From IMG/VR virus record IMGVR_UViG_3300022213_000004: DNA of 64,000 bases, one strand, 5' to 3'. The stretch is from a virus. The notes under the pieces were generated by a model, which was not told the origin of the DNA, made no database searches, and worked only from the letters and a program-made list of their open reading frames with translations. The translations under genes and the position numbers were made by a program. Shown one piece after another: positions 1 through 6,131 of this stretch (within the stretch, counting starts at the first letter, position 1; each line of letters starts with the position of its first letter).

Positions 1-2
1 TT

Positions 3-158
3 GATGCTGATCTCTGTGAGTATCTGCTCCCCGATCACAGCGAAGAGTTTGCCTATGTCTTCCGTAATGGTGAGTGGGTATGCTATAATATGCACCAGTT
101 TGATGATAGCAAACTTCCCGAAATCGTTGAAATCCCCTCTGCTGCTCTTGCTGTTTGA
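3..158 (+). CDS. Hypothetical phage protein, 3' part (truncated by window edge)
   Basis: Open frame from window start to TGA at 156-158 (..EEFAYVFRNGEW..). Confidence 0.6.
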   Translation, partial: DADLCEYLLPDHSEEFAYVFRNGEWVCYNMHQFDDSKLPEIVEIPSAALAV

Positions 159-161
159 CCT

Positions 162-353
162 ATGAAAACTTCTACTGCTCTTGGTGTTGCTTTTGGTGCT
201 CTTGTTATTGTAACCGCCAGTCTATTCTTTGAGGCATGGTTGGTTGGACTGATTTTGTCTTGGTTTGGTGTAACCTTGTCATTCTGGCAGAACTTCGTTA
301 TGATTGTTCTTGCTAATCTTATCTTCAAACCCACTGGAGGTTCTTCAAAATGA
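162..353 (+). CDS. Small membrane protein
   Basis: 63 aa, hydrophobic throughout; ATGA overlap with next gene. Confidence 0.7.
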   Translation: MKTSTALGVAFGALVIVTASLFFEAWLVGLILSWFGVTLSFWQNFVMIVLANLIFKPTGGSSK

Positions 354-760
354 AACAACAAAACGGTTTTATTGACCCTGGTATTGCTATCGTCGCAATC
401 GGTGTAATTGCTTTGGGTGGTCTCATCTTTATTGGTGGTCCTCAGTATAATGTGTGGCAGCAATCTCTTGCTGGTAAAGCAGAACTGCAAAAAGCAGAAT
501 ATACTCGCCAGGTAGCAGTGCTGGAAGCACAAGCAAAGAAAGATTCGGCACAACAACTTGCTGATGCTGAGATCATCCGTGCTACTGGTGTTGCCAAAGC
601 AAACCAAATCATCGGTGACAGTCTAAAGGACAACCGTGAGTATCTTCAGTATCTGTATATCACTGGTCTGGAAGAAGGATCTAACAAAGGTAATGTTACG
701 ATCTATGTTCCTACAGAAAATGGACTTCCTGTGCCAACTCTTTCTTATGATAGGAAATAA
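350..760 (+). CDS. Membrane-anchored coiled-coil protein (SPFH/band-7 C-terminal-like)
   Basis: N-terminal TM segment; Ala/Glu-rich coil (AEIIRATGVAKANQII). Confidence 0.6.
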   Translation: MKQQNGFIDPGIAIVAIGVIALGGLIFIGGPQYNVWQQSLAGKAELQKAEYTRQVAVLEAQAKKDSAQQLADAEIIRATGVAKANQIIGDSLKDNREYLQYLYITGLEEGSNKGNVTIYVPTENGLPVPTLSYDRK

Positions 761-768
761 ATAATAAT

Positions 769-819
769 ACCTGATTTGACCGCAATCTGTCAGGAGGAGG
801 GTGAAAATCCCTCCTTTTT
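769..819 (+). ncRNA. Putative antisense small RNA 1 upstream of GIY-YIG gene
   Basis: Late-promoter-like AATAAATA 756-763; hairpin CCTGA/TCAGG; terminator 795-819; 774-784 is perfectly complementary to 834-844. Confidence 0.55.
795..819 (+). terminator. Intrinsic terminator
   Basis: AGGAGGG-TGAAAAT-CCCTCCT followed by T run. Confidence 0.75.
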
Positions 820-853
820 AGCATAAATAAATATGCGGTCAAATTAGAGTAGT

Positions 854-1429
854 ATGAAAGGCACTATCTATTGTGTCCATTGTATTTCTACAGGAAAGAA
901 ATACATAGGTCAAACAATACAAAAATTACAATATAGAATAAATGATCACTTTTGTAGGTCTTCAAATTCACAATATAAGTTTCATCGTGCCATAAGAAAA
1001 TATGGAAAAAATAACTTCATTTATGGTGTAATTGAAGAGTGTGATTTTAGTATCATTAATGATAGAGAAATGTATTGGATAAATGTATTTGATACATTTG
1101 AGAATGGATACAATAGTGATACTGGGGGAATGAATGGAAGATTATTGTCTGAAGAAACCAAAAGTAAAATACAACAAAAAACATCTAAACATAATAATCC
1201 AAGATATGGAGTAAAATTAGATGATGAATTAAAAGAAAAAATAAAAAATTCAAATTCCAAATTTGAATATACAATTTTAGAACTTAATACTAATATCTTT
1301 TACAAAACAAATAGTTTGAGAGACTTTTGTAAAAGATATGATTTGAAAAGAGTAAATCTCGCCAGAACTTTTACTGGAAAATATAAACAACATAAAGGTT
1401 TTAGAATGGTTAGTAAGGTGACACTTTGA
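854..1429 (+). CDS. Free-standing GIY-YIG homing endonuclease (Seg-like, NUMOD-type C-terminus)
   Basis: GTIY..KKYIGQT..R, FHRAIRKYG, E..WI..GYN, SEETKSKI..NPRYG. Confidence 0.88.
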   Translation: MKGTIYCVHCISTGKKYIGQTIQKLQYRINDHFCRSSNSQYKFHRAIRKYGKNNFIYGVIEECDFSIINDREMYWINVFDTFENGYNSDTGGMNGRLLSEETKSKIQQKTSKHNNPRYGVKLDDELKEKIKNSNSKFEYTILELNTNIFYKTNSLRDFCKRYDLKRVNLARTFTGKYKQHKGFRMVSKVTL

Positions 1430-1475
1430 GAACTGGCACAAGGCACCTCCTATTCCCTGCTGGATGCCCTATAAT
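1417..1475 (+). promoter_or_regulatory. Palindrome/-10 early-type promoter copy 1
   Basis: GGTGACAC-N8-CTGGCACA, 29 bp, TATAAT. Confidence 0.75.
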
Positions 1476-1498
1476 ACTTTCATACACAAAGACACCTG

Positions 1499-1705
1499 AT
1501 GACTGACCAACGACTAATGGAACTCTGGGGAGACGGAACTGAATTTGGTATGTCTCCCGATATGATTGGTGCTATGAACAACGCATTCCGTGAGGTTGCT
1601 ATGAGGTTTGCTACTAAGGTTATGGAAATTGAATATCAGGAAGGATATAATGATGGTTGGAGTGATGGTGTGGATAGTGCAAGGTCTGGTATTCTTGGAG
1701 ATTGA
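1499..1705 (+). CDS. Hypothetical protein
   Basis: 68 aa ORF directly downstream of promoter copy 1. Confidence 0.65.
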   Translation: MTDQRLMELWGDGTEFGMSPDMIGAMNNAFREVAMRFATKVMEIEYQEGYNDGWSDGVDSARSGILGD

Positions 1706-1707
1706 AA

Positions 1708-1755
1708 ATGATTGAAGGTGGTATGCCTGTTCCTACACTTCAGATGAACAAATGA
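1708..1755 (+). pseudogene. Stranded duplicate C-terminus of the 350-760 gene
   Basis: IEGGMPVPTLQMNK* aligns with TENGLPVPTLSYDRK*. Confidence 0.6.
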
Positions 1756-1910
1756 ACCGCAAGTATGTTGTCGCTGGATTGATTGGTTTTGCAGTCATTC
1801 TTGGATGGAATGTCTTTCTAATCCAACGCGATGATGCAATGTATAAAGCATACTATCCTCAGCAAGAGATAGAGAATCTCAAGAAACCTCCAAGTTCTCA
1901 AATCCGATGA
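1752..1910 (+). CDS. Small membrane protein
   Basis: 52 aa MNRKYVVAGLIGFAVILGWN.., ATGA-coupled to neighbours. Confidence 0.6.
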   Translation: MNRKYVVAGLIGFAVILGWNVFLIQRDDAMYKAYYPQQEIENLKKPPSSQIR

Positions 1911-2020
1911 CAATAGCACTTGCAATTTCTATCTACACTGCAATGATTGCCACGGTAGTATCAATCGTGGTATATTATTTCAGGGTTATTCGTCCTAAAG
2001 ATGAGGAGCAACTTAAATGA
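1907..2020 (+). CDS. Small membrane protein
   Basis: 37 aa with one TM helix, ATGA-coupled. Confidence 0.5.
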   Translation: MTIALAISIYTAMIATVVSIVVYYFRVIRPKDEEQLK

Positions 2021-2154
2021 TTTCGCAACGCATTAAAGACCTGATTATGAAAGCAGAACAAGAAAAAGTTGCCCAAGACTTTTGGAAAGAGATTGAGCGA
2101 CTTGCCTCCGAAAAAGAGGTTACAGTTGAATATTTCCTGATGGAGTTTTATTGA
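2017..2154 (+). CDS. Hypothetical protein, paralog of the C-terminus of 21443-21715
   Basis: EIERLASEKEVTVEYFLMEFY vs ELERKAAELEVTVDYYVMEFI. Confidence 0.6.
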   Translation: MISQRIKDLIMKAEQEKVAQDFWKEIERLASEKEVTVEYFLMEFY

Positions 2155-2226
2155 TGACTTTTATTCTTGGTATGGGACTTGGCATCCTTTTGACTATCGG
2201 AACTTCGTTTATAGTCTTTTCCGATC

Positions 2227-2255
2227 TTGACAACGACGACGACTAATCTTAAACT
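2227..2255 (+). promoter_or_regulatory. Sigma70-type promoter
   Basis: TTGACA-17-TAAACT upstream of ORF 2279. Confidence 0.6.
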
Positions 2256-2278
2256 AAAGAGGTAACTTACACAAACAA

Positions 2279-2518
2279 ATGGCACAAAAGTTCTTGTATA
2301 TCGTTGACCACTTTGCAAACTTTCCCCGTTCAGAATATGGAGGAATCTGGAATGTAATTGCAGAGGACGATGATGAATGTTTTGATTTGATTAAACAATA
2401 TGATGATGGATATAATGATGATTATTATGTAAATCTTCGTGAAAAAGTAGTTAATGCAAGAACCTATGCTCTTGCTGAGGATGTAGAATCCCGAGTGGTG
2501 GAGGCATTTACAACATAG
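2279..2518 (+). CDS. Hypothetical phage protein
   Basis: 79 aa ORF; GAGG RBS; FPRSEYGGIWNVIA motif. Confidence 0.7.
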   Translation: MAQKFLYIVDHFANFPRSEYGGIWNVIAEDDDECFDLIKQYDDGYNDDYYVNLREKVVNARTYALAEDVESRVVEAFTT

Positions 2519-2533
2519 GTTATAAATACTGAT

Positions 2534-2590
2534 GCCTGCGTTGGGTGCAATCTTCACAGGTAGAGGAGGAGCAGAGATGCTCCTTTTCTT
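2534..2590 (+). ncRNA. Putative antisense small RNA 2 upstream of GIY-YIG gene
   Basis: TATAAATA 2521-2528; hairpin GCCTG/CAGGT; terminator 2567-2590; 2540-2549 is perfectly complementary to 2604-2613. Confidence 0.55.
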
Positions 2591-2625
2591 GTATAAATAC
2601 TACTGCACCCAACAAAAGAGCAGTT

Positions 2626-3294
2626 ATGGTAAATCCTAACCGATTTTATACCTACGCATATTTGCGTGAGGATAAAACTCCTTATTACATAGGTAAAGGA
2701 GTCGGTGATAGATTATACAGAAAAAATAAAAGTGAGATAAAACCACCAAAAGATAAATCTAGAATAATATTTCTCAAACAGAATTTAACTGAAGAGGAAG
2801 CATTTAAGCACGAAATCTATATGATTGCTGTGTTTGGAAGAAAAGATTTAGACGCTGGTATTCTTCGAAATAAGACTAATGGAGGTGAAGGCACTAGTGG
2901 CATTATTCGTAATGAGGAATGGAAAGAAAATCAACATAAATCACAAAAAATTCGATTCAAAAGTCCAGAACAAAGAAAAAAACTAAGTGACTCAATTAAA
3001 AAATCTTGGCAAAATCCAAAAATAAGAAATAAAATTATCGAGTCATTTAAGAATAAAAGACTTACTGAGGAACACAAAGAAAATCTTAGTGACAGTATGA
3101 AAAAATTTTATGAACAGAATCCAAATTATAAAAAACAAAAGAGTGAATACCAAAGTAATTTTTTAAAAGGAAAAAAATGGTGGACTGATGGTAAAATTGA
3201 AAAAATTGATTTTGAGTGTCCTGGTGACGGGTGGAAAAGAGGAAGAATCTCCAGAAAAAAATCTACAGTAGACAATTCTAAAACTGACCACTAG
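2626..3294 (+). CDS. GIY-YIG family endonuclease with NUMOD3-like repeats
   Basis: FYTYAYLRED.TPYYIGKG.G.R, E..MI..FGR, LRNKTNGGEG, TEEHKENLS; start moved to ATG 2626, after late promoter 2592-2599. Confidence 0.85.
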   Translation: MVNPNRFYTYAYLREDKTPYYIGKGVGDRLYRKNKSEIKPPKDKSRIIFLKQNLTEEEAFKHEIYMIAVFGRKDLDAGILRNKTNGGEGTSGIIRNEEWKENQHKSQKIRFKSPEQRKKLSDSIKKSWQNPKIRNKIIESFKNKRLTEEHKENLSDSMKKFYEQNPNYKKQKSEYQSNFLKGKKWWTDGKIEKIDFECPGDGWKRGRISRKKSTVDNSKTDH

Positions 3295-3297
3295 ATG

Positions 3298-3326
3298 TTG
3301 ACTTTTGATTATTTCTCTGTTACTAT
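3298..3326 (+). promoter_or_regulatory. Sigma70-type promoter
   Basis: TTGACT-17-TACTAT. Confidence 0.55.
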
Positions 3327-3346
3327 TGGATAGTTGTTAAAACCTA

Positions 3347-3502
3347 ATGACAAACACCAACAAAATGGTATTTGACCTAAAGGTACAATACCAAGAACGA
3401 ATTGAGCAACTACAAAGAAAAATTGCAGAACAAGAGCACGAAATCTCACAACTGCAAAAACAAATCGAATATATGTCAAGAGACAAATTTTACGATTGCT
3501 AA
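3347..3502 (+). CDS. Small coiled-coil protein
   Basis: 51 aa ORF with heptad pattern. Confidence 0.55.
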   Translation: MTNTNKMVFDLKVQYQERIEQLQRKIAEQEHEISQLQKQIEYMSRDKFYDC

Positions 3503-3507
3503 TCAAT

Positions 3508-3795
3508 ATGAGTTATGAACCACAGGTTAATGATTATGTAAAATGGTCTAAAAGTGTTGAAGGATGGGTTTACTTTAAGGGCAAAGAGTATATCACAATT
3601 GAATACAATGTTCGCCCAAAGAATAAACAAAATTATCTTGCTTGTTCTATTCATAAGAATGAAAGAGTTCTTGTGATTTGCTACCATCATCAGTGGAATC
3701 AGTTAGAGTATGTTAAATCAAGAAAATCAAAATATGAAGAAGAACAAAACTGCCTGGCGATGGTGGGCAAAAGCGATTGGGGAGAAGGCAAGTAA
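3508..3795 (+). CDS. Hypothetical phage protein
   Basis: ORF MSYEPQVNDYVKW..EGWVYF. Confidence 0.65.
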   Translation: MSYEPQVNDYVKWSKSVEGWVYFKGKEYITIEYNVRPKNKQNYLACSIHKNERVLVICYHHQWNQLEYVKSRKSKYEEEQNCLAMVGKSDWGEGK

Positions 3796-3997
3796 ATGTG
3801 ATCGTGAATCGGATAAGATCGCTCTTATCCGAACTTTTATTTTTGCGACCTATTTGATTACTAATGCTTTTATTGTTGCTGGTGTGATTCGTCATTGGAA
3901 TGATGGCACTAAAATAGAAGTATTTGTTGAGACTTCTGCTCCAGAATATCAAACTCCTACGATGAAAGCATCAAATAGATCTTTTGAGTTTGAATAG
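3734..3997 (+). CDS. Hypothetical membrane protein
   Basis: WRWWAKAIGEKA..TM..IRHW. Confidence 0.65.
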   Translation: MKKNKTAWRWWAKAIGEKASKCDRESDKIALIRTFIFATYLITNAFIVAGVIRHWNDGTKIEVFVETSAPEYQTPTMKASNRSFEFE

Positions 3998-3999
3998 AC

Positions 4000-4007
4000 T
4001 ATAAATA
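4000..4007 (+). promoter_or_regulatory. T4-type late promoter
   Basis: TATAAATA 22 bp upstream of ATG 4030. Confidence 0.75.
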
Positions 4008-4029
4008 TCTAAAAAGTATTTGTAAAAAA

Positions 4030-4770
4030 ATGAACTCTCAAGACATTCACAATCTTCAAGAAGCATACCTAAGTGTTTATGAATCAAATTCACTTGAAGA
4101 AGGTATTCGCTCAGCAATGAAAAGACTTCTTGGTGGTAAGAAAAAAGAAACTGAAACATCAGAACCAGAAAGTAGAGGTGCATATCTCCGTAGAAAATAT
4201 AATGTTGGACCAGAAAGAAGTGATACATCTGCAAAGAGACAAATTCTAAACAGATCTGGTGCAAGAGCAGAAAGAGACAAAAGAGACTATGGTGGTTCTA
4301 AGTATTCCAAATCAGTTGCTCAACAATCAGCAGACGCACACGATCGTTATTTGAAAGCAGGTTATAGTAAGTATGGTGCTGATCTGAAGCACGGTAGAGG
4401 TAGTAAAGCAGCAAAAAGAGCAGCAGCACTTCAAAGAGAAGAGTATGACCTCTACGACATCATTCTCTCACACCTTCTTGATGAAGGATATGCTGAAACA
4501 CCAGAAGCAGCAGAAGTCATTATGGTGAATATGAGTGAAGAGTGGAGAGAGAGTATCGTTGAAGAAATGCTTGATGAAGCACTAACTGGTGAGCGTTATA
4601 AGAAGGTAATGAAAAAACCAGGTGGAACTGCATATAGTCGTAAGGTAAGCGCAGACCCATCCAAACGTGCTACAAGAGGTGGTAGAGGTGGTGAAAGTGA
4701 TTTTGGTGCTGGTGATAGAGGGTCTGGTAATAGAGCAGCAAGAAGAGCAGGAACTTATAGAGAGGACTGA
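4030..4770 (+). CDS. Late-expressed, probable internal head protein
   Basis: Late promoter; basic blocks separated by LQEA/LEEG/IVEE/LDEA candidate prohead-protease sites. Confidence 0.6.
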   Translation: MNSQDIHNLQEAYLSVYESNSLEEGIRSAMKRLLGGKKKETETSEPESRGAYLRRKYNVGPERSDTSAKRQILNRSGARAERDKRDYGGSKYSKSVAQQSADAHDRYLKAGYSKYGADLKHGRGSKAAKRAAALQREEYDLYDIILSHLLDEGYAETPEAAEVIMVNMSEEWRESIVEEMLDEALTGERYKKVMKKPGGTAYSRKVSADPSKRATRGGRGGESDFGAGDRGSGNRAARRAGTYRED

Positions 4771-4825
4771 ACCACTTTTCAAACTGTCCACTGGGGGGTC
4801 TTCGGACCTCCTTTTTTTGTATAAT
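4768..4825 (+). promoter_or_regulatory. Palindrome/-10 promoter copy 2 with embedded terminator
   Basis: TGAACCAC-N8-CTGTCCAC, 28 bp, TATAAT; the gap holds GGGGGTC-TTCG-GACCTCC-T7. Confidence 0.7.
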
Positions 4826-4847
4826 GGTCTCATACGAAACAAACCTC

Positions 4848-4934
4848 ATGGCAGTCTCTCACGAAATCAAGTCCCAACTCGCCAAACTGCTGGCTACTGA
4901 AGACCTTGTGGTGGAGCACAAGAAAGTCCCATAG
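4848..4934 (+). pseudogene. 28-codon 5' remnant of a CobT-like/peptidase-vWA gene
   Basis: MAVSHEIKSQLAKLLATEDLVVEHKKVP* resembles the N-terminus of a large protein common in T4-like cyanophages (recognised from memory). Confidence 0.55.
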
Positions 4935-4955
4935 TATCTTAAAATAAAATATAAT

Positions 4956-4983
4956 AAAAAAGGAGGGTTTTATCCCTCCTTTA
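4956..4983. terminator. Terminator between convergent units (mainly - strand)
   Basis: AAAAAAGGAGGG-TTTTAT-CCCTCCTTT. Confidence 0.7.
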
Positions 4984-4986
4984 ACT

Positions 4987-5190
4987 TTATTTGGAACTTA
5001 CGAAATCATTGATGATTTCTGCCTGCTTTAGGACATTTTCTAAAGTTGGAAACTCTGGATAGTCCATCGGCACTTCTTTTTTCTCAACTTCATTCCAACG
5101 AACAGCAGTATCGTGTTCTACACAAAATTGATCATTGAGCATATTATATGCTTGCTTAAAGATTTCAAATCGAAGTTCATATGGTGTCAT
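4987..5190 (-). CDS. Hypothetical protein; the only convincing - strand gene
   Basis: MTPYELRFEIFKQA..FPT..VLKQAEIINDFVS; AGGAG RBS; TTGACT-16-TATAAT on - strand at 5239-5266; own terminator. Confidence 0.8.
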   Translation of the reverse strand: MTPYELRFEIFKQAYNMLNDQFCVEHDTAVRWNEVEKKEVPMDYPEFPTLENVLKQAEIINDFVSSK

Positions 5191-5272
5191 AGGTATTCTC
5201 CTAATGTGTGTGATGTGTGAGTGTAATACTCAAGGGATATTATACAATAAATAATCAAAAAGTCAAGAGATA

Positions 5273-5482
5273 ATGAAGACCTTTCAACAATTCAATGAAG
5301 ATTTGAGAAAGCTTCAAGGAGAACTTGAAACTCTTGAGCGTCAATCTGCACCAAGACAAAGACTTGCTGCAAGAAGAAGAGCAGCACTAGAAAGAACAAG
5401 ACAACTTCATAAAGCAGAAAAACAAAGACAAAAGAAATATCAAGAGCAGCAAGCAGAATTAAGAAGACAAAGAAAAGATTAA
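5273..5482 (+). CDS. Basic coiled-coil protein with capsid-targeting-like N-terminus
   Basis: MKTFQQFNE resembles T4 internal-protein CTS MKTYQEFIAE; AATAAATA upstream. Confidence 0.65.
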   Translation: MKTFQQFNEDLRKLQGELETLERQSAPRQRLAARRRAALERTRQLHKAEKQRQKKYQEQQAELRRQRKD

Positions 5483-5492
5483 GCAAACTTAC

Positions 5493-5551
5493 TGGGACAC
5501 CTTGAGAACCGTCCATCACCCCTTCCCAGACCGCCCGTTCTGGTGTATGAT
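5493..5551 (+). promoter_or_regulatory. Palindrome/-10 promoter copy 3
   Basis: TGGGACAC-N8-CCGTCCAT, 29 bp, TATGAT. Confidence 0.75.
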
Positions 5552-5576
5552 ACTTAAGTTCAAATGAGAGAGGTCA

Positions 5577-5714
5577 ATGGACGATTTTGATGATTTTCAA
5601 ATTGAAGAGATCTCTGGTTTTGATTTTGCAGAAGAATCTTTCGATGGTCTCTTTGATGAAGAAACTGAGGAGCAATCATTTAACTCTTTTTTGAAATCTA
5701 ATTACGACTATTGA
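5577..5714 (+). CDS. Very acidic small protein
   Basis: 45 aa MDDFDDFQIEEISGFDFAEESFDGLFDEETEE..; GAGG RBS. Confidence 0.6.
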   Translation: MDDFDDFQIEEISGFDFAEESFDGLFDEETEEQSFNSFLKSNYDY

Positions 5715-5761
5715 TGTTTGCATCAATTCTTATCCGTCATCACTTTAATAAACTTGCAACT

Positions 5762-5947
5762 ATGACCCCCGATACTCTTAACTTCGCAGGTGATTATACC
5801 ACAATCCTTGGTTTTGTTGGTGTTCTTTCGACGTTTGTTATTGTTTATACTTCCTTCAAGCGTTTTTATAATTCTCCTTACAATGTTCGCGTAAAGACTC
5901 AAACTTCCAACGAAACCCCTGAACTTTATACCGAAACCAATGACTGA
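5762..5947 (+). CDS. Small membrane protein
   Basis: One TM helix. Confidence 0.6.
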   Translation: MTPDTLNFAGDYTTILGFVGVLSTFVIVYTSFKRFYNSPYNVRVKTQTSNETPELYTETND

Positions 5948-6131
5948 TACTGTAAATGTTCTTCCACATCTTCAAGAACTTCAACAAACTTGGAGGCGGC
6001 AGGATTTTAGTTTGACTAAACAACAACAAGAAGAATACAATATGCTTCTTCAAGCACGGCGAGAGAGAGTAAAATGGTTTTACTCTGAAGGTAGAGTTAG
6101 TAAAGGTCGCACTAAGACGGACACTTTCTGA
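5940..6131 (+). CDS. Hypothetical protein
   Basis: 63 aa; stop codon lies inside palindrome copy 4. Confidence 0.65.
   Translation: MTDTVNVLPHLQELQQTWRRQDFSLTKQQQEEYNMLLQARRERVKWFYSEGRVSKGRTKTDTF

Follow-up and report, generated by a model that had tools for sequence, protein, structure and literature searches.

The 64,000-nucleotide stretch of viral DNA analyzed here (IMG/VR record IMGVR_UViG_3300022213_000004, referred to as the window) contains two homing endonuclease genes (HEGs), at 854–1429 (gene 1) and 2626–3294 (gene 2), and no other homing-endonuclease-like genes. All features described are on the plus strand. Directly 5' of each HEG lies a cassette (756–856 and 2521–2628) with one shared order of parts, which are a late promoter (P1), a hairpin, an intrinsic terminator, a second late promoter (P2), a leader, and the ATG of the endonuclease. 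An earlier note on this DNA had described the same order upstream of both genes, and every part was found where the note had placed it. The loop sequence of the hairpin pairs with the first 10–17 nucleotides (nt) of the P2 leader. With modest confidence, we regard this element as a portable 5' module for the control of HEGs in T4-like cyanophages (Kyanoviridae), in which a mask acting in cis is combined with an antisense RNA of about 55 nt acting in trans.

In copy 1, the P1 motif AATAAATA (756–763) overlaps the stop codon of an upstream protease-like gene (350–760), and its predicted start is A769. The 5' hairpin (769–794) has a stem of 770–775 with 789–794 according to RNAfold, and its loop displays the 5' arm ATTTGACCGCA (774–784). 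A GC-rich intrinsic terminator follows at 795–819, with the stem 795–801 with 809–815, the loop TGAAAAT, and a T-run at 815–819. The P2 motif CATAAATA was placed at 822–829 from alignments, with the predicted start at G835. The leader (834–856) comprises the 3' arm TGCGGTCAAAT (834–844), a Shine-Dalgarno (SD)-like GAG (847–849), and the ATG (854–856), and reads TTAGAGTAGT up to the ATG at 854.

In copy 2, P1 and P2 are both TATAAATA, located at 2521–2528 (predicted start G2534) and 2592–2599 (predicted start G2605). The 5' hairpin (2534–2561, stem 2534–2538 with 2557–2561) displays the 5' arm GTTGGGTGCA (2540–2549) in its loop. The terminator (2562–2590) has a 12-bp stem of 2562–2573 with 2578–2589 and the tail TTTTCTT. 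The leader (2604–2628) carries the 3' arm TGCACCCAAC (2604–2613), an SD-like GAG (2618–2620), the GCAG at 2620–2623, and the ATG (2626–2628).

The start sites of P1 and P2 were inferred by the T4 rule. In this window, the baseplate, adaptor, sheath, and portal genes have an ATAAATA motif 13–42 nt 5' of their start codons, which supports reading P1 and P2 as late promoters. The TAAATA of P2 was invariant across 71 aligned cassettes. The terminators were assigned from folding and covariation. The pattern CCTG..GCAATCT..CAGG occurs twice in the window against an expectation of 0.01, and whole cassettes were more stable than their shuffles (z = −8.1 for copy 1 and −4.8 for copy 2). A chance origin of the two cassettes is thus ruled out. 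No further exact matches to the arms were found within the 64 kb, and a loose scan of IMG/VR for the same pattern returned chance matches only. The GCAATCT had been taken for a fixed scaffold; in the family alignment it is merely a frequent variant, and its GCA belongs to the arm.

The complementarity between loop and leader is real in both copies, but the reported length of 10–11 bases was too short, since the helix extends to the SD-like GAG. In copy 1, RNAfold paired 768–784 with 834–851, which nearly reaches the AUG and places the GAG in the pairs C771–G847 and C770–G849. When the RNA comes from upstream, the helix gains 764–766 with 853–855. Beyond the arm helix of copy 2, CUGC (2536–2539) pairs with GCAG (2620–2623). 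A helix covering the ribosome-binding element of the endonuclease gene was therefore found in both copies. P2 lies between the two arms and is predicted to start transcription at the first base of the 3' arm.

The long helix was the most stable structure in both RNAfold and RNAalifold. Its proximal part is formed by the 5' half of the local hairpin, whose 3' half is a separate segment. A pseudoknot in read-through RNA, as the earlier note had offered, is unlikely because the long helix and the local stem compete for the same 5' bases, which are those of the 5' half of the stem. The pseudoknot was set aside as a candidate, since the local stem and the long helix are alternative structures. We consider it likely that the long helix forms and represses in cis.

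Covariation was analyzed in 80 distinct cassettes using a model-guided alignment, which is fitted to the structure and made of related sequences, so that the counts given here are not independent events. Across the long helix and the terminator, 94.8% of the cells were standard pairs, compared to 67.1% in shuffles and 32–49% with slid partners, and the covariation score was 0.73 versus 0.23. Both sides changed in 20 of the 22 pairs, and a single position could hold, for example, CG in 27 cassettes, UA in 27, and GC in 24. The proximal helix was 95.5% paired and covaried with the AG(C/U)AG of the leader. The purine at the predicted P1 start covaried with the C/U of this motif (GC 39, GU 20, AU 19). 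G-U pairs were common (GU 20, UG 25), and other non-standard pairs at those two positions were rare (2 and 0). This combination places the pairing in sense-strand RNA and shows that selection is on this RNA rather than on the DNA or on an antisense transcript.

In an unfitted MAFFT alignment, RNAalifold also picked the long-range helix, and 10 of its 11 predicted pairs showed compensatory changes. The terminator helix was 89–91% paired across the family, again with compensatory changes. Covariation of loop and leader, which the earlier note had seen between two copies, thus extends to about 100 natural copies.

The arms were the most variable part of the cassette, with 50 distinct arms among the 80 cassettes. 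When cassettes with identical beginnings of the adjacent coding sequence were compared, the arms differed at 0.55 of positions, versus 0.26 at 4-fold sites of that coding sequence. Such fast change of the arms fits selection on addresses. The arm sequence would be free to vary as long as both arms match, and each cassette would then have its own address. A natural chimera was also observed (L310:295–403), in which the 5' arm TGTGTGTCGCA does not match the 3' arm TGCGGTTTCAA. Four of the six cassettes of the cyanophage S-SRM01 (L265, L268, L272, and L273) have an almost identical terminator and P2 scaffold with unrelated arms, and the scaffold likeness within this genome may be due to concerted evolution.

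To avoid circularity on P1, the covariance model used for the family search began 3 nt ahead of the start predicted for P1, which left the promoter out. This model gave two matches in the 64 kb, which are the two cassettes (E about 1e-16 and 1e-12) and mark the starts of the only two HEGs. About 110 further cassettes were found in cyanophage genomes and contigs. Protein-guided searches of IMG/VR yielded 140 loci, from which 71 unique upstream regions of the P1 type were aligned. The homologues of gene 2 in S-SRM01, S-B68, and B23 have the same architecture with wholly different yet matching arms. Five complete genomes contained 15 model matches, six of them in S-SRM01. All 15 matches end at or a few nt from the start codon of an open reading frame (ORF), and these ORFs encode GIY-YIG-type and HNH/NUMOD3 homing endonucleases and an EndoVII-like nuclease, apart from a few that are unassigned. 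The cassette was also present at 33 of the 79 loci gathered with an unrelated HNH/NUMOD3 endonuclease.

The cassette is thus a module common to unrelated selfish nuclease families (GIY-YIG, HNH, and EndoVII-like). Linkage of the cassette to nuclease genes, which the earlier note had seen at two genes, was borne out by the covariance model in the window, the complete genomes, and the HNH loci. A search of Rfam 15 over positions 1–6000 of the window, with E up to 10, gave no match overlapping either cassette, and no curated family there corresponds to it. A near-identical copy of window cassette 1 was observed on a gene-2-family endonuclease (L188:1396–1497), which represents a module swap. A weak model match was seen in P-HM2 after psbD (L285:1500–1590), with GGTAACGCAC, TAAATAA, a terminator, CTAAATA, and GTGTTACC in succession, and this match precedes a small ORF and not an endonuclease.

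The arms form a perfect 10–11 bp inverted repeat in the DNA, as a cruciform or a recombination or homing signal at the DNA level would have. The earlier note had also raised the idea that the RNA serves as a guide or cofactor of the nuclease. We regard both possibilities as very improbable. At the DNA level, the tolerance of G-U pairs with other non-standard pairs rare at the same positions indicates that sense RNA is selected. As for a guide, the only match of the arms in the window is their own leader, and one and the same arm serves two endonuclease families, namely at L188 and in window copy 1. Furthermore, GIY-YIG and HNH homing enzymes recognize DNA through protein domains such as NUMOD3. 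Membership among RNA-guided nucleases was also considered and rejected, as the arms have no other match in the window and the cassette occurs on GIY-YIG, HNH, and EndoVII-like genes alike.

The nearest sequenced phages to the window are the Synechococcus myoviruses S-SZBM1 and S-PM2, with approximately 82–85% identity over a single gene, and the late proteins encoded in the window, among them baseplate, sheath, and portal proteins, are of the T4 type. Both observations point to a T4-like cyanophage (Kyanoviridae-like) as the source. A GIY-YIG catalytic domain was recognized in both endonucleases. Gene 1 encodes a GIY-YIG protein with NUMOD3 of the group I intron endonuclease family (Pfam PF01541, NCBIfam TIGR01453, PHROG 314). 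Gene 2 encodes a divergent Seg-like GIY-YIG protein assigned to PHROG 314 'homing endonuclease', and the Pfam search gave neither a GIY-YIG match nor any other Pfam match for it. The protein belongs to a large family in cyanophages in which the residues Y..Y, YIG, R, E, and N are invariant; in gene 2 these are Y8/Y10, Y20-Y21-x-G23 (the YIG motif), R29, E63, and N82. For its predicted fold, the best nine PDB matches were all UvrC GIY-YIG domains, with a probability of up to 0.96 and weak E values of 0.046–0.38.

No similarity was detectable between the proteins of gene 1 and gene 2. The description of the two genes as dissimilar GIY-YIG genes was upheld, through Pfam for gene 1 and through residues and fold for gene 2. 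Homologues of gene 2 carry annotations as Seg-like or intron endonucleases. In the GenBank records of S-SRM01, B23, B3, and Sf-CH5, homologues of endonuclease 2 are labelled 'translation initiation factor 2' (L121:1501–2259, L123:1495–2118), apparently a wrong annotation for Seg-like GIY-YIG endonucleases.

In S-SZBM1, a tblastx comparison showed that the homologue of the protease-like gene directly precedes the next gene. In the window, the displaced original 3' end of this gene was found by the same comparison at 1714–1755, and the gene now ends, just before P1, in different codons supplied by the inserted segment (718–760). The displaced 3' end indicates that the segment from about 720 to 1713 came in as one unit, with this footprint as its far border. 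The unit contains P1, the hairpin, the terminator, P2, endonuclease gene 1, and a 68-codon ORF, so P1 and the terminator arrived together with the nuclease. The 68-codon ORF (1499–1705), between endonuclease 1 and the footprint, had no family match. A TATAAT is located at 1470–1475, after endonuclease 1, and a sigma-70-like promoter (TTGACT, 17 nt, TACTAT, with an upstream TG) at 3298–3326, just after the stop codon of endonuclease 2. These promoters may restart transcription of the downstream genes behind the cassette terminator.

Several HEGs of T4 and its relatives, namely I-TevI, I-TevII, I-TevIII, and segB of T4 and mobE of Aeh1, have a stable RNA structure that sequesters the ribosome-binding site (RBS) on early, middle, or read-through transcripts (PMC2988022). 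Their late promoter is placed so that late transcripts drop the inhibitory half (PMC2988022; Edgell, Gibb & Belfort 2010). The cassette resembles these masks in having an HEG-upstream helix with a ribosome-binding element and a TATAAATA-type late promoter between the arms, in a T4-like phage, and the purpose would likewise be restricted nuclease synthesis. The earlier note had called the cassette a different design from the T4 hairpins. With P2 between the arms and the helix reaching the SD-like element, this claim therefore fails for the core, which is the same nested-late-promoter mask.

Beyond this core, the cassette differs from the T-even and Aeh1 masks in several respects. Its helix encloses an intrinsic terminator. 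A late promoter of its own precedes the 5' arm, which occupies the loop of a distinct covarying hairpin. The arm sequences are hypervariable, and one cassette type is common to several unrelated HEG families. The main duplex lies at the 5' terminus of the late mRNA, with the AUG mostly unpaired.

We propose a mechanism with two layers, of which the first was seen at the sequence level and is known from T4, and the second we infer. In the first layer, any transcript containing the 5' arm, whether by read-through from upstream or from P1, would form a helix of 16–24 bp with the leader. With the SD-like GAG and the beginning of the leader buried in this helix, translation would be lowered. The enclosed terminator would cut read-through into the nuclease gene. 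The P2 mRNA, which would start at the first base of the 3' arm, would lack the mask and be translatable late.

In the second layer, transcription from P1 would start at the base of the hairpin and end at the terminator, yielding a two-hairpin RNA of about 55 nt, simultaneously with the P2 mRNA. Its target in trans would be the cognate leader, from nt 1 to about nt 17, in a pairing like that of IS10 RNA-OUT with RNA-IN. The RNA would act as an addressable brake through a translation block, as an RNase III target, or both, and the level of a potentially toxic nuclease would thereby be kept low.

An xTAAATA motif was present at a fixed upstream distance in 36 of 36 unique cassettes, which came from two unbiased sets retrieved with the model lacking P1. 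By per-sequence folding, which was chosen for scoring the local hairpin, the predicted P1 transcript consisted of two abutting hairpins, 0–2 nt apart, in 78 of 80 unique cassettes. The first of them starts at +1 or +2, and the median length of the P1 RNAs is 54.5 nt. The stem of the local hairpin showed compensatory variants (CCTG/CAGG, CTCT/AGAG, TCTGT/ACAGA, and GCTTAA/TTAAGC). In the predicted separate RNA, a 10–12 nt antisense sequence is displayed in a loop of 13–17 nt.

The predicted RNAs showed specific complementarity to the translation initiation region of their targets, as judged by duplex and heterodimer energies. The cognate loop-leader duplex averaged −21.1 kcal/mol, compared to −9.0 for non-cognate duplexes, and 62 of 78 RNAs paired best with their cognate leader. 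The two window copies behaved as orthogonal pairs, with −22.6 and −21.6 kcal/mol for the cognate and −6.5 and −9.8 kcal/mol for the crossed combinations. With the cost of opening the hairpin included, the heterodimer was favored over the folded monomers by a net −12.9 ± 2.5 kcal/mol. YUNR U-turn motifs were not enriched overall (60 loops versus 57 expected); towards the 5' side of the loop they occurred 48 times versus 31, a weak signal among related sequences. The promoters, the T-run of the terminator, and the G-U pattern all lie on the gene strand, and transcription is thus neither opposite-strand nor divergent.

The earlier note had proposed a separately promoted and terminated RNA of 50–60 nt. 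Its sequence features were found to be conserved, whereas the trans-acting RNA is putative. P1, the hairpin at the predicted +1, and the enclosed terminator appear to be parts beyond the known T4 mechanism, and a purely cis-acting mask needs none of the three. We think it reasonably probable that a discrete P1 RNA accumulates. Action of this RNA in trans is quite possible, somewhat short of probable.

A possible, if doubtful, explanation is that the cassette works only in cis, as an elaborate T4-type mask with an insulating terminator, and that the terminated short RNA is a by-product without trans function. P1 would then be a weak or accidental AT-rich promoter-like motif, or a source of extra masked read-through RNA, and the local hairpin would prevent mispairing of the 5' arm during transcription or aid termination. 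Nested-late-promoter masks are established for HEGs of the T4 family (PMC2988022) and were noted for marine metagenomic HEGs (PMC2677866), and the preference of both folding programs for the long helix agrees with such a mask. However, P1 was found in all 36 unbiased matches at invariant spacing, the base of the hairpin coincides with the predicted +1 in 78 of 80 cassettes, and its stem covaries independently of the leader, none of which a cis mask needs. In addition, the strongest pairing is at the extreme 5' end of the P2 mRNA and not at the SD or AUG, which is odd for a pure RBS mask.

A second cassette type, which also bears on the cis-only explanation, was observed on gene-2-family endonucleases (L171:1423–1500, L195:1423–1500, L197:390–470, and L188:2700–2788). 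It has a conserved terminator-like scaffold, GGGCAGCAAC..GTTGCGTAAGTCCC, followed by a T-run, with the 5' arm in a variable loop. The loop is complementary to 12–16 nt whose end lies at or over the ATG, and TATAAATA separates the two segments. A clear upstream promoter was not found for this type, nor was an Rfam match. Pairing is thus achieved in these cassettes without a clear P1, which favors a cis-only mask.

Several further observations weigh against a cis mask combined with a trans-acting RNA. The predicted mask is partial, since the mean unpaired probability of positions −12 to +3 drops from 0.59 to 0.44; in copy 2, accessibility of these positions is practically constant (0.65 versus 0.64). 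The AUG is mostly unpaired in the predicted structures. A model-fitted alignment of the local hairpin with a second covariance model gave 78% paired cells with register shifts, and the covariation counts carry the dependence among fitted, related sequences described above. A simple terminator scan called neither cassette terminator, because the stems extend into the T-run through A/G-U pairs. The fast divergence of the arms could be module shuffling, or could reflect a homogenized scaffold and N-terminal coding region. The cassette was absent from Syn9, S-PM2, P-SSM2, and P-SSM4, the tested cyanophages with published transcriptomes. Finally, the second cassette type suggests that the 5' arm does not always need its own promoter.

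Another explanation accepts the P1 RNA as real and gives it a different role, such as 5'-end protection, RNase III processing that activates or times expression, another target among phage or host RNAs, or titration of an RNA-binding protein. The duplex covers the 5' terminus of the mRNA and might shield it from 5'-end-dependent decay or provide a double-strand RNase site, and the mask over the AUG is weak. Nevertheless, we consider such a role improbable, as covariation links the proximal helix to the SD-like AG(C/U)AG, which points to control of translation initiation. Moreover, no second target was found in the window, and the precedent of T4-family HEGs is repression.

Taken together, the cassette is probably a T4-type nested-promoter mask that was made mobile, and its P1-hairpin-terminator unit would also yield the mask arm as a small antisense RNA.

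In marine metagenomic 'fractured genes', 15 of 16 endonuclease ORFs were described as having a hairpin upstream; ten of the hairpins include TATAAATA, and two conserved motifs pair in their stem (Dassa et al. 2009, PMC2677866). They share with the cassette a marine cyanophage-like setting, a hairpin upstream of free-standing endonucleases, and the late-promoter motif. Compared by description only, they differ in being presented as translational hairpins without an upstream promoter, an enclosed terminator, or a discrete RNA.

IS10 RNA-OUT/RNA-IN, Sok/hok, and IstR-1/tisB are antisense systems of a selfish element or of type I toxin-antitoxin modules. As in the proposed second layer, a small stem-loop RNA limits the potentially harmful enzyme of a selfish element and its gene adjoins the target. 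The loop of this RNA makes the initial contact, at the 5' end of the target mRNA, and covers the region where translation starts. These RNAs are transcribed opposite to or divergently from their targets, whereas the cassette arm is in tandem on the same strand, its RNA is predicted, and its complementarity arises by an inverted repeat. CfrI of cyanophage S-PM2 is reportedly a true antisense RNA of about 225 nt on the opposite strand, linking psbA to the F-CphI homing endonuclease. It is likewise a non-coding RNA tied to a cyanophage HEG, but it is an opposite-strand transcript, and S-PM2 has no match to the cassette. CfrI is also mentioned in PMC9964418.

Homing endonucleases need low, well-timed levels to spread without harming the phage, and the T4 mask helix that is bypassed by a late promoter is a textbook case of such control. 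The cassette suggests that cyanophages package this T4 logic as a mobile, self-contained module with its own insulator terminator. The module appears to move between unrelated nuclease families, with the pairing kept through extensive compensatory change.

More tentatively, the P1 transcripts may constitute a widespread family of same-strand trans antisense RNAs of about 55 nt whose private addresses evolve fast on a constant scaffold of two hairpins, serving as a stoichiometric brake for several unrelated nuclease families. If so, dozens of mutually orthogonal small-RNA/leader pairs would already exist in nature, with their addresses kept distinct by selection. If P1 yields no small RNA, the cassette is still a well-supported structured RNA family absent from Rfam. 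If it does, it would represent a new antisense layout, in tandem on the same strand, and a class of small RNAs of marine and freshwater phages overlooked by current annotation, which would provide a natural library of orthogonal RNA-RNA pairs.

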